From a virus (Duplodnaviria > Heunggongvirae > Uroviricota > Caudoviricetes): a stretch of DNA of 11,680 nt. The position numbers and the translations under genes are program-made. Positions 3,656 through 8,681 of the stretch are shown piece after piece; the first letter of the stretch is position 1; each line of letters starts with the position of its first letter. The stretch is taken from positions 1-11,680 of the IMG/VR virus record IMGVR_UViG_2740892236_000004. The stretch is one strand, 5' to 3'. The notes below the pieces were generated by a model. It searched no databases, had not been told where the DNA came from, and worked only from the letters and a program-made list of their open reading frames with translations.

Positions 3656-4186
3656 ATGGCTAAACGCGTTACAAAATTAAAGGCCGCAGCCGAGGCGGCA
3701 CCGCAGACCCGGGAAGAAGTCAGCCGTGATATCCGCACCCTGGGAGATATTCAGCGAGAGGCGCTGCGCCTGGAAACGGCGATGAATGACGAAGTGGCAG
3801 AAATCACCGCCCGTTATACGCCGCAGATTGAAAATCTTAAAAAGCAAATCAAAGTGCTTTTTAAAGGGATTCAGGACTGGTGCAAAACCAACCGTGATGA
3901 GCTGACGAACGGCGGCAAAACCAAAACAGCCAATCTGACCACCGGAACGGTGTCATGGCGGCTGGGAACGCCATCATGCAGCGTCAGCCGTGATGTGGAA
4001 GGTGTGATTGAAATGCTGCGCCGTATGGGGCTTGAGCGTTTCATCCGCACGAAAGAGGAAGTGAACAAGGAAGCCGTCCTGGCGGAGCCGGATGCTGTGA
4101 AAGGCATTGCCGGTATCAAGGTGAATAAAGGCGCTGAAAGTTTTTATGTCGAGCCTTTTGAACAGGACGCCGGACTGAATAAATAA
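3656..4186 (+). CDS. gam: Gam-like host-nuclease inhibitor (Mu Gam family, DNA-end-binding)
   Basis: 176 aa (Mu Gam is about 174 aa). Blocks such as LRLETAMNDEVAEITARY, ANRDELTNGGKTKTANLTTGTVSWR, GLERFIRTKEEVNKEAVLAEPDAVKGIAGI and FYVEPFEQ match my recollection of Mu Gam closely. AAGGA lies 8 nt upstream of ATG 3656. Confidence 0.88.
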   Translation: MAKRVTKLKAAAEAAPQTREEVSRDIRTLGDIQREALRLETAMNDEVAEITARYTPQIENLKKQIKVLFKGIQDWCKTNRDELTNGGKTKTANLTTGTVSWRLGTPSCSVSRDVEGVIEMLRRMGLERFIRTKEEVNKEAVLAEPDAVKGIAGIKVNKGAESFYVEPFEQDAGLNK

Positions 4187-4331: not shown

Positions 4332-4865
4332 ATGATTGATGCAAAAGTGCTTGAAGGGGTTAAAAACTGGCTGTGTATTTATGGCCGCCTGACCTGCGGT
4401 GTACTGGCTGAAAAAATGAATATGCCGCCATCCTCCATGGTTTATTTTCTGCGTGATGCGGTTGATGCAGGCGTGCTGACGGAATGTAACGGTTTTTATG
4501 ATATTCCGCGCCCCCGCCCGGTGCAGCCGGTTCGTCGCAAATGCAGCCAGGAATCTGCGGCTGATGATGTTCAGTGGTGCGGCTTCAGAAAATCCCTGCC
4601 ATGGATTGAGGGGCATGATATTCCGTCGATGGCGTGGGAATTTGCTCAGGGCGTTCTGACCTGTGAAACCGTTTATGTGGTGGCTGAAGTTGATGAGCAG
4701 GCCATGAAAGAAGGCGTGCCCCAGTTTGTGATGGCGTATATCGACATACGCCTGGGCGTCATTATCTGCGGTTTAAGCGGCTGGAATATCACTGAACATG
4801 TTCTGCGCTACCTGATTGTTGACCGGACAGCAGCGCCTGCCGGGATATCTGCGGAGGTGGCGTAA
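4332..4865 (+). CDS. Hypothetical protein (177 aa), first gene of a six-gene coupled module. The N-terminal ~50 aa look like a winged-helix fold, but this is weak.
   Basis: ATG 4332 after a 145-bp AT-rich intergenic region. Stop TAA 4863-4865 overlaps the next ATG (4865). Confidence 0.55.
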   Translation: MIDAKVLEGVKNWLCIYGRLTCGVLAEKMNMPPSSMVYFLRDAVDAGVLTECNGFYDIPRPRPVQPVRRKCSQESAADDVQWCGFRKSLPWIEGHDIPSMAWEFAQGVLTCETVYVVAEVDEQAMKEGVPQFVMAYIDIRLGVIICGLSGWNITEHVLRYLIVDRTAAPAGISAEVA

Positions 4866-5380
4866 TGTTCTTTAAAACATCAAACCCTTCCGCGCTGGCT
4901 GCGTGGCAAAAATACCAGCAGGACTGCCAGAAAGTTAAGGATGAGGCAAAACGCCTTGAGGCCGTGCTGAATGTTGCGTGCCGGTCGGTATTTGTATCCG
5001 GTATCAGTGGATTTTGCTTTAAGGGACTGCGTTTTACGGAGGACAAATATCCTTTTCATCGCGACTTATGGCGAAAACCGACTGCGTCGAATGGCTGGAG
5101 CTGCACACCGCGCACATCACGTATCCCTAAAACCCTGCGTGTTGCCTCTGATGAACTGAACAGTCTGTGGCGTGAATATTCGCCCGTCACGTATGCCAGA
5201 ACCGATGCGCTGTTGTTCTGGCTGGGTATTGATTTCTCGGCAATCCTGTTTGGCCCTGTGAAGTGGTTCTGCGTTGACGATGTGATTTATCTTCAGTGCG
5301 AAGATGATTCCGCAAAACGGAAAATGACCGAAATTCTGTCTGATGAGTTTTATGCTGCCGAAAAGCGAGTCAGGGGGTGA
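4865..5380 (+). CDS. Hypothetical protein (171 aa)
   Basis: ATG 4865 overlaps the upstream stop (TAATG). No motif recognised. Confidence 0.55.
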   Translation: MFFKTSNPSALAAWQKYQQDCQKVKDEAKRLEAVLNVACRSVFVSGISGFCFKGLRFTEDKYPFHRDLWRKPTASNGWSCTPRTSRIPKTLRVASDELNSLWREYSPVTYARTDALLFWLGIDFSAILFGPVKWFCVDDVIYLQCEDDSAKRKMTEILSDEFYAAEKRVRG

Positions 5381-5383
5381 TGT

Positions 5384-5935
5384 ATGATGATTTTACAACA
5401 CATGGGGCGAAAAGGTCGTACACCCGCTCATGTCCGCGCGTGGACACCTGAAGAAGATGCGCTACTGATTGCGCTTTATTCATCCACCCCGGTTAAGGAT
5501 ATTGCTGCCAGAATAAAAAGAACTGTCTGGGCTGTATATAACCGGACTGGTGTATTGCGCAGTTCATACCCGGAGTTACTGAAATATAAACACCCAAGAT
5601 TTACACCTGATGAAGATAAGTTTATTCGAAACAATGCCAGAACAATGACCTGCCAGCAAATGGGAGAATATCTCGGACGTAATAAAGATTCTGTCAGATG
5701 TCGGGCAGGAATGATTGGTGCTGGATTAACAAAGTGCGGAGAGTTACGCCCCGGCACGCGCATATCTGATGATGATGTACGTCTTATACGTGCGCTGCGT
5801 GATTCCGATTACCCACGCCGTCTGTCATTCCGGGAAATTGGCGAAAAGTTTGGAATATCTGAACATTCTGCTCACGCAGTTTATTACCGTCGCCGGACTG
5901 CCGAGGACGCTGTATTACGGGAGTTAACGCCATGA
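5384..5935 (+). CDS. Putative DNA-binding protein with three tandem HTH-like repeats (Myb/SANT-like or sigma-70 region-4/LuxR-like)
   Basis: 183 aa, with GGGGG 6 nt upstream of ATG 5384. Three internally similar ~40-aa segments: WTPEEDALLIALYSSTPVKDIAARIKRTVWAVYNRTGVL / FTPDEDKFIRNNARTMTCQQMGEYLGRNKDSVRCRAGMIGAGL / ISDDDVRLIRALRDSDYPRRLSFREIGEKFGISEHSAHAVYYRR. Confidence 0.6.
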   Translation: MMILQHMGRKGRTPAHVRAWTPEEDALLIALYSSTPVKDIAARIKRTVWAVYNRTGVLRSSYPELLKYKHPRFTPDEDKFIRNNARTMTCQQMGEYLGRNKDSVRCRAGMIGAGLTKCGELRPGTRISDDDVRLIRALRDSDYPRRLSFREIGEKFGISEHSAHAVYYRRRTAEDAVLRELTP

Positions 5936-6261
5936 TAACGACCTTATTTGTTGAATCAGATGAACCTCTTGTGTGTGCCGCCGGAATGCCGCTCTGTGGC
6001 GGAACGCTGACCGGTGTTTATTTCGGGGATTTACGCGGTTATCCCTGGCATTCACTGAATGATGCTTTCCCACCTGATATGGAGGCTGTCGTGCTGATTG
6101 TTCAGTATGGTCACCGTCAGGAGCTGCGCATCGGCCATATGGGGTATGAAGGCTTTTTTGTTGATGAAGAAACCGGAGCCTGCCTTGAAGATGAAGACGG
6201 ACAGGTGACGCACTGGTGTCATATTTCGGCTTTACCGGAATTACGGGAGGTGAATGCGTGA
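5932..6261 (+). CDS. Hypothetical protein (109 aa)
   Basis: ATG 5932 overlaps the upstream TGA (ATGA). Its stop TGA 6259-6261 overlaps the next start (GTGA). Confidence 0.5.
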   Translation: MITTLFVESDEPLVCAAGMPLCGGTLTGVYFGDLRGYPWHSLNDAFPPDMEAVVLIVQYGHRQELRIGHMGYEGFFVDEETGACLEDEDGQVTHWCHISALPELREVNA

Positions 6262-6608
6262 GAAGTTATATTGATAATGAAAAGCTGGAGACAATAAGCG
6301 ACTGTCTTAGCTTGCTGGCAAAAATCAAAGAAACTATTGAAGAGATTAAATTTCAGCTTGAATACGCACCATGTGGCGATGATGCATGGCGTAATGCTGC
6401 CAGAAAAGCACTGGCTGTCTTTCAGAAACAACGCCGGGCTGTTGAATACCGCCTTGCTGTATTGCGCCAGGAGGAAAAGGAAAGAAATATAAGACGTCAT
6501 GAACGCGTTAATGATTTCCTTGTTCGTGAATTAAAAGAGCGCGTGCCGGAGTCGGTATTTTTTGAATGTGAGGCTATAGCCCGTAGCAAAGCACTGGAAA
6601 CAGATTAA
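6258..6608 (+). CDS. Hypothetical protein (about 116 aa), predicted largely helical and charged
   Basis: GTG 6258 with GGGAGG (6245-6250) 7 nt upstream, coupled to the upstream stop. The ORF track's ATG 6216 would overlap the previous gene by 46 nt and lacks an RBS. Confidence 0.5.
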   Translation: MRSYIDNEKLETISDCLSLLAKIKETIEEIKFQLEYAPCGDDAWRNAARKALAVFQKQRRAVEYRLAVLRQEEKERNIRRHERVNDFLVRELKERVPESVFFECEAIARSKALETD

Positions 6609-6623
6609 GCAGGCAGGTGAATA

Positions 6624-6932
6624 ATGAGTATTGAATTAAGATCGTCTTATGAATATCGCAAAATCCTTATCGCCGGAGGGATGAAACCGGAAGATGCTGA
6701 AAAATTCGTTTCTTTTATGGATAAAGAATGTGACAAGCGGGATATGCCAGAAATTATTATGGATGACATGATTCTGGATTCAGCCGTAGCGTTAAGTCCG
6801 TTATGGATTGTGCATACCCTTGCGGAAATAGCTAAAAGAAGTGACAAGCAGGCGGCTGTCGCCGCCCTGCGATTACTGGCTGAATTAAGTTGTTCAGTCA
6901 ATCCCAATACGTTCTTTGACGAACCTGGTTAA
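6624..6932 (+). CDS. Hypothetical protein (102 aa). Its 3' end overlaps the 3' end of the reverse-strand gene by about 39 nt.
   Basis: ATG 6624 with AGGTGA 4-5 nt upstream. AT-rich. Stop TAA 6930-6932. Confidence 0.55.
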   Translation: MSIELRSSYEYRKILIAGGMKPEDAEKFVSFMDKECDKRDMPEIIMDDMILDSAVALSPLWIVHTLAEIAKRSDKQAAVAALRLLAELSCSVNPNTFFDEPG

Positions 6933-7611
6933 CATTGATTTGGTAACTTCTTTAATTAGATCAAATGGTGCGTCTGTAAACTCCTTTTTGATTCTTTCAA
7001 GGATTGGTTTTTTTCTCAGGGCGTTAGCTAAATCANNNNNNNNNNTAGTCAATCCCAATACGTTCTTTGACGAACCTGGTTAACATTGATTTGGTAACTT
7101 CTTTGATTAGATCAAATGGCGCGTCTGTAAACTCCTTTTTGATTCTTTCAAGGATTGGTTTTTTTCTCAGGGCGTTAGCTAAATCATGCCCCTGCTGGGT
7201 AAGCATAATGGGCGTGTTTCTGAAACCAACGCCCAGAGAATGGAAAAAGAAACCAATATATTTGGGTGTTTCTGACTGCATATCACCATTAACAATTGAG
7301 CCATTATCAGCGAGAAGCATAAGATGAAAAACTTTTTTATCCTNNNNNNNNNNAGTAAGCATAATGGGCGTGTTTCTGAAACCAACGCCCAGAGAATGAA
7401 AAAAGAAACCAATATATTTTGGTGTTTCTGACCGCATATCACCATTAACAATTGAGCCATTATCAGCGAGAAGCATAAGATGAAAAACTTTTTTATCCTT
7501 TTCCTCTCCTTCTGCCTCAGCCATGCCCAGATCCTGTAGTGTAAGGAAAGGTGTTTCAGCATCCTGAAAAGTTGTGAGAATACTTAATACTTCATCGTAA
7601 TCTATTTTCAT
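6894..7611 (-). CDS. Hypothetical protein on the reverse strand (about 136 aa once the duplicated scaffold overlaps are collapsed). The only reverse-strand gene in the window; candidate accessory (moron) gene.
   Basis: Reverse-strand ATG (complement of 7609-7611) with AAAGG 7-8 nt upstream. Translation MKIDYDEVLSILTTFQDAETPFLTLQDLGMAEAEGEEKDKKVFHLMLLADNGSIVNGDMQSETPKYIGFFFHSLGVGFRNTPIMLTQQGHDLANALRKKPILERIKKEFTDAPFDLIKEVTKSMLTRFVKERIGID, stop TGA as complement of 6894-6896. Two N10 joins (7036-7045, 7344-7353) with duplicated flanks inflate the apparent length. Short hand counts put GC near 40% here versus about 56% in B. Confidence 0.6.
7036..7045. other. Scaffold join (10 N). Flanks 6896-7035 and 7047-7186 are near-identical overlaps.
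   Basis: Run of exactly 10 n. gtcaatcccaatacgttctttgacgaacctggttaacattgatttggtaacttctt... occurs on both sides with 2 substitutions seen. Confidence 0.97.
7344..7353. other. Scaffold join (10 N). Flanks 7199-7343 and 7355-7499 are near-identical overlaps.
   Basis: Run of exactly 10 n. gtaagcataatgggcgtgtttctgaaaccaacgcccagagaatg... occurs on both sides with a few substitutions. Confidence 0.97.
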
Positions 7612-7675
7612 ATCGATACCTTTAGTTTTATCCGGGCGGCGTTGCCATGCCGCCTGTTGTTACGGAGACACGATA

Positions 7676-8188
7676 ATGAATCGCGCTTCCCTGATTACCT
7701 TAATACATGTCGCAAAACGCGATCTACAGCTTGACCATGAGACCTACACATCCGTACTACTGGCAGCCACCGGCAAACCCAGTTGCCGGGATATGTCACC
7801 GGATGAGTTATCCCGCGTGCTGGATGTTTTCAAAAAACGCGGTTTTAAAGTGCGTCAGAAGCCGGTTAACCGGGCCTTAAAACCGGGTACGGTGACCGCC
7901 AAAATTCGCGCCATCTGGAAGGTGATGCACCGGCAGGGCTTTATCTCTGATGGCGGGGAAACAGCCCTTAACCGCTGGGTGAAATCGCAGACGGCCGCTC
8001 AGAACGGCGGCGAAGGTGTGGCTAACTGGCAGTGGCTGGAACAACACCCCGCGCTGGCCTCTGATGTGCTGGAGCGTCTCAAACGCTGGCACCGCCGCAA
8101 GATGCTGGATGTGCTGGGGATGTCAGCGCGTACAGTGATGAGTTATGAGCGCGTTTGCAGGCTGTATGAAGAATCCTCCCCCTTTTAA
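7676..8188 (+). CDS. gemA: GemA-like phage regulatory protein (Mu gene 16 family)
   Basis: 170 aa with GGAGA 7 nt upstream of ATG 7676. N-terminus MNRASLITLIHVAKRDLQLDHETYTSVLLAATGKPSCRDMSPDELSRVLDVFKKRGF fits my recollection of the GemA family pattern (SLIaqIHiAK..LgLDDdTYr..L...TGk.ScrDM...L..VLD.FKr.GF). Position just upstream of the Mor/C-type gene matches Mu. Confidence 0.7.
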   Translation: MNRASLITLIHVAKRDLQLDHETYTSVLLAATGKPSCRDMSPDELSRVLDVFKKRGFKVRQKPVNRALKPGTVTAKIRAIWKVMHRQGFISDGGETALNRWVKSQTAAQNGGEGVANWQWLEQHPALASDVLERLKRWHRRKMLDVLGMSARTVMSYERVCRLYEESSPF

Positions 8189-8192
8189 CCCC

Positions 8193-8224
8193 AAATCCCG
8201 CCACAGCGCGGGATTTTTATTTTA
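8193..8224 (+). terminator. Rho-independent terminator immediately after gemA
   Basis: Perfect 9-bp stem aaatcccgc (8193-8201) / gcgggattt (8207-8215), 5-nt loop cacag, then a T-rich tract ttttatttta. Starts 5 nt after the gemA stop. Confidence 0.8.
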
Positions 8225-8258: not shown

Positions 8259-8681
8259 ATGGCTGAAACACAGATGAGCATGTTTGGTGACAGCGAACAG
8301 CTGCACGCGCTGATTGACCGTCTGGATGATATTCCTGATGATGAGCTGAAAAAGAACTGGCCCGGCACGCTGCGGGACCTGGTTGATGTGATCAGTGCTG
8401 AACTGCACCGTCAGGGGATTGAACCTGCTCAGGCGGGAATGCTTGCCCGTAAGGTTGCAGCCGCACAGGCCGGGTACATGGGCGGGCGTGGTTATTATCT
8501 CCCGGTCGGTGAATCCCTTTTCACCGAACTGCGCAATAATGAAATTTTTTCCCGCTGGAGCCAGGGCGAAAAAATTGAAACCCTGCGCCGCCACTACCAG
8601 ATGTCAGAGACGCAGATTTACTCCGTTATCCGTAACCAGCGCCGCCTGCATCAGGAACGCACGCAGCCCCGGCTTTTCTGA
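8259..8681 (+). CDS. Mor/C-family transcriptional activator (Mu middle/late gene activator family). Which of the two Mu roles it plays is not resolvable from sequence.
   Basis: 140 aa with GGAGG 5 nt upstream of ATG 8259. The C-terminal HTH-like segment ETLRRHYQMSETQIYSVIRNQRRLHQER parallels the Mor/C C-terminal DNA-binding region. The acidic N-terminus and overall size fit. It lies between the terminator and the lysis genes. Confidence 0.72.
   Translation: MAETQMSMFGDSEQLHALIDRLDDIPDDELKKNWPGTLRDLVDVISAELHRQGIEPAQAGMLARKVAAAQAGYMGGRGYYLPVGESLFTELRNNEIFSRWSQGEKIETLRRHYQMSETQIYSVIRNQRRLHQERTQPRLF

Follow-up and report, generated by a model that had tools for sequence, protein, structure and literature searches.

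The stretch of phage DNA analysed here (11,680 nt, hereafter the window) contains a gene at positions 5384–5935 (+) for a small protein with three acidic motifs. A preliminary description, made from the sequence alone, had read this protein as three tandem helix-turn-helix (HTH) repeats and as a possible regulator of a kind that is uncommon in phages. This raises the question as to what the three-HTH protein is related to, and what it may do for the phage that encodes it.

The gene and its place in the early operon

The open reading frame (ORF) list and the sequence bear out this coding region exactly. The gene codes for 183 amino acids, and all three acidic motifs are present as W20-T-P-E-E-D, F73-T-P-D-E-D, and I126-S-D-D-D-V. 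The protein is basic as a whole (pI 9.96; 34 lysines and arginines versus 22 aspartates and glutamates), and so is each of its modules, with pI values of 9.8 (module 1), 9.4 (module 2), and 8.4 (module 3). A Shine–Dalgarno-like AGGGGG, read from the sequence at 5372–5377 (+), is located 6 nt before the ATG. According to the ORF list, the preceding ORF stops at 5378–5380, 3 nt short of the start of the three-HTH gene. Because this stop falls just before the start, translation of the two genes is probably coupled within the early operon. At the other end, the TGA stop codon (5933–5935) overlaps the ATG of the next ORF (5932–5934) in the arrangement ATGA. On both sides the gene adjoins its neighbour directly, and no non-coding DNA intervenes. 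Three complete E. coli genomes have chromosomal genes that match this 552-bp gene with 99.8% identity, and 71 of 5426 complete E. coli genomes carry it. The annotated counterpart of the protein in RefSeq (WP_000973019.1; CDS 99.8% identical) is named "SANT/Myb-like DNA-binding domain-containing protein".

The gene content places the window in a Mu-like prophage of E. coli, of which it comprises the early and middle region. In the best-matching E. coli record the gene order begins with repressor-side genes, an HTH (Ner-like) gene, the Mu transposase, and a MuB-like AAA ATPase. It continues with small ORFs, Gam, three hypothetical genes, the three-HTH gene, and further hypothetical genes, and it ends with gp16/GemA, Mor, lysozyme, and head genes. 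Pfam matches in the window locate Gam at 3656–4186, a Mu gp11-like protein at 4332–4865, GemA at 7676–8188, and Mor at 8259–8681; the three-HTH gene is placed between gam/gp11 and gemA/mor. The only strong terminator-like site between 3500 and 8400 follows gemA (8193–8216), and promoter-like or terminator-like sites near the three-HTH gene are no more common than in shuffled sequence. On both observations, the gene is internal to a long early operon. A PADLOC search returned no defence-system match for the gene or its five neighbours.

Fold and parts of the protein

An AlphaFold2 model computed from an alignment of 14 sequences (mean pLDDT 78, pTM 0.41) contains three separate three-helix bundles with one acidic motif ahead of each. 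The bundles comprise residues 22–59 (helices 22–32, 37–44, and 48–59), residues 75–110 (helices 75–84, 90–97, and 101–110), and residues 129–169 (helices 129–140, 149–156, and 160–169). The N-terminal 16 residues and the linker 119–125 are modelled with low confidence, and the pLDDT falls below 50 at residues 1–8 and 12–16. A whole-chain Foldseek search against the PDB gave no useful information, since the relative placement of the modules is not fixed.

Together with the family alignments, this model divides the protein into six parts. The N-terminal basic arm (residues 1–19; 5384–5440, +) is modelled as disordered, carries the conserved motif PMGxPGxxPxH(V)R, and may contact the minor groove or the backbone of DNA. 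Module 1 (residues 20–59; 5441–5560, +) is a Myb/SANT-like three-helix bundle that begins with WTPEED and resembles the DNA-binding domain of GcrA. Module 2 (residues 73–110; 5600–5713, +) begins with FTPDED and was identified as a second Myb/SANT-like bundle by hhalign, by alignment to the R3 repeat of c-Myb, and by AlphaFold2. The linker between modules 2 and 3 (residues 111–125; 5714–5758, +) contains a K-x-G-D/E motif in which, among 30 diverged homologs, K117 is invariant and G119 nearly so. Module 3 (residues 126–169; 5759–5890, +) is a diverged HTH that starts from ISDDDV; it is visible in the AlphaFold2 model, by hhalign, and through weak Pfam matches, and no part of the family is better conserved (DxDVxLIRxLRD ... 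LTFxEIxEKF). The C-terminal helix (residues 173–181; 5900–5926, +), seen in both model and alignment, carries the conserved tail TAxD..RExLP and could be a protein-contact element.

Internal repeats

Are these three modules copies of one another? When the single sequence was compared with itself and with shuffled versions, the signal was weak for R1 against R2 (z 3.2, p 0.014) and for R2 against R3 (z 2.8, p 0.018), and there was none for R1 against R3. Repeat profiles were also cut from the 30-sequence family alignment and compared by hhalign. R1 and R2 align over 47 columns (probability 99.2%, E 3e-19). R2 and R3 align over 38 columns (probability 93%, E 2.6e-7), in register over all three helices and with a 5-residue insertion in the H1–H2 loop of R3. 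The match between R1 and R3 is limited to a 21-column HTH core (probability 88%, E 3e-6). Hence, the idea of three similar repeats stands, with a qualification for the third module, which is more diverged and shares with the first only the HTH core. These profile comparisons identify modules 1 and 2 as genuine repeats of one another, and module 3 is either a much older repeat copy or another type of HTH. A search for tandem repeats in the gene at the DNA level found none, which makes the duplication ancient.

Domain identity

The resemblance of modules 1 and 2 to Myb/SANT repeats holds up at the profile level. The protein scores 25.0 bits with the Pfam family Myb_DNA-binding (PF00249), marginally above the gathering cut-off of 24.4 bits, with a best stretch of only residues 19–33. 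Searched against PDB sequences, the family profile matches c-Myb R2R3 (1h88_C, E 1.7e-4), whereby residues 19–106 span both Myb repeats with the same spacing. The protein therefore shares with Myb R2–R3 the register of tandem three-helix repeats of about 50 residues. The tryptophan triad of Myb is not kept: W20 in R1 and F73 in R2 remain, and the second and third positions are occupied by non-aromatic residues such as T55. Because the canonical triad is lost, "Myb-like" rather than "Myb" is, by sequence, the correct term for modules 1 and 2. Compared to eukaryotic Myb R2R3/SANT proteins (PF00249, PF13921), the protein also differs by a third module of another HTH type and by its prokaryotic or phage origin.

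The best structural match to modules 1 and 2 is the DNA-binding domain of GcrA from Caulobacter (PDB 5yiu). The likeness is confined to this fold. GcrA consists of one DNA-binding domain and a C-terminal domain that interacts with sigma-70, whereas the three-HTH protein has three modules and lacks that C-terminal domain; it gives no Pfam match to GcrA (PF07750) at E ≤ 10.

The likeness to sigma-70 region 4 and LuxR that the preliminary description had offered as an alternative to Myb applies to module 3, although in a generic sense only. Residues 125–165 match HTH_AsnC-type, HTH_10, HTH_38, and Sigma70_r4, all below the Pfam cut-offs for the three-HTH protein. Among 30 family members, Sigma70_r4 is matched by 20, Sigma70_r4_2 by 17, HTH_23 by 16, Myb_DNA-binding by 15 (at E ≤ 0.01), Myb_DNA-bind_6 by 14, and HTH_AsnC-type by 11. 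These profile matches describe module 3 as an HTH of the sigma-70 region 4, LuxR, or AsnC type, in the sense of a generic three-helix HTH. Membership in any of these families is a different matter. The score is 12.1 bits for Sigma70_r4 (cut-off 24.1) and 12.3 bits for TIGR02937 (cut-off 42.9), sigma-70 region 2 is not matched, and no RNA polymerase (RNAP)-binding element was found in the protein. HTH_AsnC-type scores 19.8 bits against 27 (residues 130–164) in a protein that contains no RAM domain, the second hallmark sought for AsnC/Lrp proteins. Diverged homologs are often named "AsnC family protein" in databases. We rejected this name as an identity; with no RAM (AsnC_trans_reg) domain present, it is a mislabel inherited from the HTH match. 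In contrast to LuxR-GerE proteins, the three-HTH protein has no LuxR receiver or ligand domain. An NCBIfam search gave no useful match.

The archaeal CRISPR-repeat-binding proteins Cbp1 and Cbp2 are likewise small and built solely of two or three linked HTH modules. One such two-HTH protein (2lvs) is matched by the family profile at E 0.003 over residues 30–115 and is the top Foldseek match in the PDB, although a weak one (E 0.08). Cbp1 and Cbp2 differ in lineage and context, and there is no CRISPR array near the three-HTH gene.

A distant relative of phage T5 D5

A more informative relationship emerged from phage protein families. The three-HTH protein matches phrog_323 ("transcriptional regulator, D5-like") with E 7.5e-52, residues 5–182 falling on profile positions 82–256 of 319. 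D5 of phage T5 matches the same family with E 1.2e-71. A direct hhalign comparison of the family alignment with T5 D5 gave a probability of 97.3% and E 1.8e-11 over 162 columns (residues 17–183 against D5 71–251), an alignment that spans all three modules. Even pairwise BLASTP recovers the relationship (24% identity, E 6e-6). By these alignments, the three-HTH protein is a distant relative of D5, remotely homologous over the whole three-module arrangement. D5 (T5.118) is larger, with 255 residues; its extra N-terminal 70 or so residues are without counterpart here and resemble a fourth HTH-like segment, and it has a Lys/Ala-rich tail. Both are early phage proteins, in the present case by operon position. 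D5 belongs to a virulent phage and is needed there, whereas the three-HTH gene is carried by temperate phages as an accessory cassette.

What is known about D5 makes the earlier suggestion of a regulator plausible. The GenBank note in the T5 record describes D5 as [quoted passage not shown]. Where PMC12630848 cites McCorquodale et al. (1979, J Virol 29:322), D5 is introduced as a transcription factor that has been linked to replication and to the suppression of early gene expression. According to a recent preprint (bioRxiv 10.64898/2026.07.11.737809), T5 mutants that escape the type IX retron-Kva2 carry mutations in D5, including W74*; D5 alone is mildly toxic and triggers this retron; and AlphaFold3 predicts that the HTH of D5 binds retron msdDNA. 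Residue W74 of D5 aligns with W20 of the three-HTH protein. We also considered the trigger of DRT4 as a lead to D5 and discarded it: this trigger is T5 ORF55, a single-stranded DNA binder unrelated to D5.

The domain-level RefSeq label and PHROG 323 were already known, and by itself the three-HTH protein is an ordinary multi-HTH phage protein with an existing label of this kind. It joins a known kind, the Myb/SANT-like and D5-like multi-HTH proteins of phages, as a putative DNA binder. This placement provides a structural and evolutionary identity for a prophage gene, known from Mu-like, P2-like, and further prophages in E. coli, Salmonella, and their relatives, that goes by names such as "hypothetical", "SANT-Myb", or "AsnC": it is the three-module version of the early DNA-binding protein D5 of T5. 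The mechanism of D5 is still poorly understood even though D5 is needed for the early-to-late switch. A small, non-essential homolog from a temperate phage could be an easier system in which to study the binding targets of D5-like proteins and their sensing by retrons.

Homologs and their genomic contexts

A profile search of 1.84 billion cluster representatives returned 8583 proteins at E ≤ 0.001, of which 1589 reached E ≤ 1e-10. The three-module architecture of 165–216 residues occurs in about 25 of the best 150 matches. These proteins conserve the PMGxPGxxPxH arm, the K117-x-G119-D/E linker, DxDVxLIRxLRD in helix 1 of module 3, and the TAxD..RExLP tail. The remainder of the best 150 are longer (266–1340 residues) and contain 2–10 matched stretches of the R1–R2 unit. 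Across 30 clusters from several phage types, the full length (170–195 residues) and the specific motifs are kept down to 27% identity. In the BFVD structure database, many phage proteins show the same multi-HTH fold, for example several paralogs of phage Goslar, endonucleases, and a Vibrio phage "D5 protein". The claim that proteins of this kind are uncommon in phages is thus contradicted by the existence of PHROG 323, by these structural relatives, and by the occurrence of the repeat unit in 8583 clusters (E ≤ 0.001). A search of the literature on prophages, Mu-like or not, for proteins of the Myb/SANT or GcrA-like kind turned up no paper on the three-HTH family.

The homologs occur in diverse surroundings. 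In P2-like prophages the gene lies upstream of the gpA replication gene, where it follows a Dam methylase gene in two loci (L002, L004); a homolog in Citrobacter phage Shae_phiSM, also P2-like, is located upstream of gpA as well. In a lambdoid-type prophage that carries an integrase (L006, L007), it comes after the restriction-alleviation gene Lar. In another prophage (L003) it adjoins a gene for a Sequestin-domain protein, and on one short contig (L009) a C5 methylase follows two genes downstream of it. The homolog loci compared share neither a constant neighbour nor a constant non-coding flank. Phage Mu itself contains no homolog at E ≤ 0.001. As judged from the absence of a homolog from Mu and from the 71 of 5426 E. 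coli genomes that carry the gene, it is dispensable for the phage type.

These comparisons also led us to reject two ideas. A cis-acting target that travels with the gene does not fit flanks that vary by phage type, or a gene that in the window abuts both of its neighbours. An accessory role specific to Mu transposition is not compatible with homologs in phages without MuA or MuB.

Putative function

With fold, repeat structure, homology to D5 and PHROG 323, and genomic setting established, the reading that we prefer, with a probability of about 0.6, is that of an early-expressed D5-like DNA-binding protein. Because the gene sits in the early operon, the protein would be made alongside the transposase right after induction or infection. 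Its three recognition helices, together with the basic arm and the linkers, would bind duplex DNA over roughly 1.5–2 helical turns, and this binding would alter transcription and/or replication early in the lytic programme. Binding to duplex DNA with an effect on transcription or replication is most likely, and any particular downstream effect is less probable than the reading itself. Host DNA, or DNA in general, is a more likely target than a phage-specific site, since the gene occurs in the early operons of P2-like and further integrase-bearing prophages as well as of Mu-like ones and has no constant neighbour or non-coding flank across them. Fusions or overlaps of related repeat units with genes for helicases, HNH endonucleases, and methylases fit a DNA-targeting module.

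Several points count against this reading. The homology to D5 is remote, and D5 extends about 70 residues further at the N-terminus. The phage that D5 serves is lytic and follows another transcription programme, and Mu-type phages already have Mor and C for their middle and late switches. Conservation in the family is strongest on helix 1 of module 3, on the K-x-G-D linker, and on the C-terminal tail rather than on the recognition helices, so that the conserved surfaces could serve a protein partner. SANT-type domains are able to bind proteins in place of DNA. Finally, no candidate binding site for the three-HTH protein was identified.

One alternative is a role in the conflict between phage and host. 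The protein may neutralise the nucleic-acid part of a host defence, such as retron msDNA or another sensor DNA or RNA, or it may itself be what defences sense. The report that T5 D5 triggers retron-Kva2 and the predicted binding of D5 to msdDNA count in its favour, and the genes near the homologs (Dam and C5 methylases, Lar, the Sequestin-domain gene) are the usual surroundings of counter-defence functions. In addition, the gene travels alone, as one cassette, among temperate phages that are not related to each other. The early-operon accessory regions, however, house many unrelated functions, which makes evidence from neighbourhood weak. Sensing by a retron is uninformative about the protein's own function, the gene and its five neighbours give no PADLOC match, and the window contains no retron or other partner. 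We consider this role unlikely. Similarly doubtful is a broader proposal, in which the protein would be a host-directed early effector that moves among Mu-like, P2-like, and lambdoid-type prophages and finds its target in a host nucleic acid that Enterobacterales have in common. It might silence a chromosomal locus, or it might bind the nucleic-acid sensor (DNA or RNA) by which a defence system works, an option hinted at by the link between D5 and retron msDNA.

The conservation pattern that weakens the case for a DNA binder could point to a sigma factor or RNAP mimic, an idea raised in the preliminary description. In this scenario module 3 or the whole protein would bind the RNAP beta-flap, an anti-sigma factor, or an activator, and redirect or block host transcription without DNA. 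Helix 1 of module 3 is indeed, with the C-terminal tail, the most conserved surface, and GcrA, the best fold match, acts via sigma-70. GcrA, however, touches sigma through the C-terminal domain that is missing here. Sigma regions 2 and 3 are absent, the Sigma70_r4 score of about 12 bits is far from the cut-off of about 24, and any three-helix HTH would give such a resemblance. The strongly basic charge is typical of DNA binders. For RNAP prepared from T5-infected cells, PMC7472727 names the phage proteins gpA1, pb8, and gpT5.026, and not D5. Such mimicry or titration is quite improbable.

We assign an equally low standing to a SANT-like protein–protein adaptor, the modules of which would bind a protein of the host or the phage, such as a nucleoid protein, a replication factor, or the transposase MuA/MuB, instead of DNA. 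Strong conservation outside the recognition helices and the lost tryptophan triad would be explained by such a function. On the other hand, protein-binding SANT domains are typically acidic and the modules described here are basic (pI 8.4–9.8), the homolog D5 binds DNA, and a Mu-specific partner is excluded by homologs in P2-like and lambdoid-type prophages that lack MuA and MuB. It is very improbable that the protein is a stranded DNA-binding domain, a functionless remnant of a homing endonuclease or methylase without its catalytic domain: the repeat unit does underlie mycobacteriophage genes annotated as HNH endonuclease or DNA methylase, and endonucleases are among the structural relatives, but the conservation of the three-module length and motifs across 30 clusters down to 27% identity implies purifying selection on a stand-alone protein, and T5 D5, which shares the stand-alone architecture, is functionally important.

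Tandem arrays of the repeat unit

The R1–R2 unit also occurs in much longer proteins. The largest array that we counted contains nine units, and other proteins contain more matched stretches. Long tandem-array proteins were found on bacterial contigs as well. One protein encoded outside of the window (P0024) consists of a helicase followed by nine near-identical units of 46–49 residues, in which helices 1 and 2 are almost invariant and helix 3 is hypervariable. In pairwise comparisons of these units at the codon level, positions 28–40 account for 276 non-synonymous versus 78 synonymous differences, and positions 1–27 for 161 versus 174. Among 58 proteins with at least five units, the entropy within each protein peaks at unit positions 29, 30, 33, 34, and 37, which share a single face of the recognition helix; further exposed positions of the unit are variable too. 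Variation of the recognition helix in such arrays would suggest a modular and evolvable scaffold for DNA recognition in prokaryotes and their phages.

Conservation and naming of the three-HTH family

Across the alignment of 30 three-module homologs, only one residue is invariant: K117, which lies in the linker that joins module 2 to module 3 of the window protein (K117–G119, window 5732–5740). G119 is nearly invariant, the linker carries the motif K-x-G-D/E, and this short stretch is better conserved than the recognition helices. Many homologs (P0002, P0004, P0006–P0014 and others) are named "AsnC family protein" in the databases because of a sub-threshold match of the HTH_AsnC type on module 3. 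We rejected this identity, since these homologs have no RAM domain, the defining feature of AsnC/Lrp regulators.

The distantly related early DNA-binding protein D5 of phage T5 (L013:12311–13078) has, compared with the window protein, approximately 70 additional N-terminal residues that resemble a fourth HTH-like segment. A 2026 preprint (bioRxiv 10.64898/2026.07.11.737809) reports W74* in D5 as an escaper mutation for retron-Kva2. In our alignment, W74 coincides with W20, the tryptophan that opens module 1 of the window protein.

Genomic context

The three-HTH gene also occurs as a single cassette in the early operons of other prophages. Three of these are P2-like and carry the gene upstream of gpA (L002:8001–8549, L004:6001–6543 and L010:4647–5198), in the first two cases after a Dam methylase gene. 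In an integrase-bearing prophage of the lambdoid type the cassette follows Lar (L006:6001–6564), and in another prophage it adjoins a gene for a Sequestin-domain protein (L003:8001–8582). At these homolog loci, the stop codon of the three-HTH gene and the start codon of the gene that follows it often overlap.

Within the window, positions 6247–7657 have no megablast-level match in the closest E. coli prophage (L001), which is otherwise about 96% identical. Judged by this comparison, the stretch is a variable accessory segment. Its three ORFs (6216–6608, 6624–6932 and, on the minus strand, 7033–7611) returned no Pfam or PADLOC match. Farther downstream, between gemA and mor, a strong hairpin resembling an intrinsic terminator (8193–8216; 9-bp stem with five G-C pairs, then a T-run) is present; the early operon probably ends here.

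The window also contains five runs of 10 Ns each (391–400, 749–758, 1243–1252, 7036–7045 and 7344–7353). At four of them, 391–400 being the exception, the 25-mer directly 5' of the run recurs some 120–340 bases downstream; overlapping BLAST matches to the closest E. coli prophage flank the first three runs, including 391–400. These runs look like unmerged scaffold joins. They give rise to artificially duplicated ORF segments, as at the C-terminus of the transposase, at the N-terminus of MuB and in the minus-strand ORF 7033–7611.

Tandem arrays of the Myb/GcrA-like unit

Long tandem arrays of the same Myb/GcrA-like unit as in the window protein were observed in P0024 (L012:2686–5109), P0027, P0028, P0031 and P0035 and in 58 of the 183 fetched proteins, in some cases with a helicase fused to the array. 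We counted nine units in P0024 and up to 10 matched stretches in other array proteins. The P0024 units combine nearly identical helices 1 and 2 with a hypervariable recognition helix, where 276 non-synonymous differences stand against 78 synonymous ones; elsewhere in the unit the corresponding counts are 161 and 174. This pattern suggests that the DNA-contact residues have been diversified, and the arrays may constitute a modular recognition scaffold.
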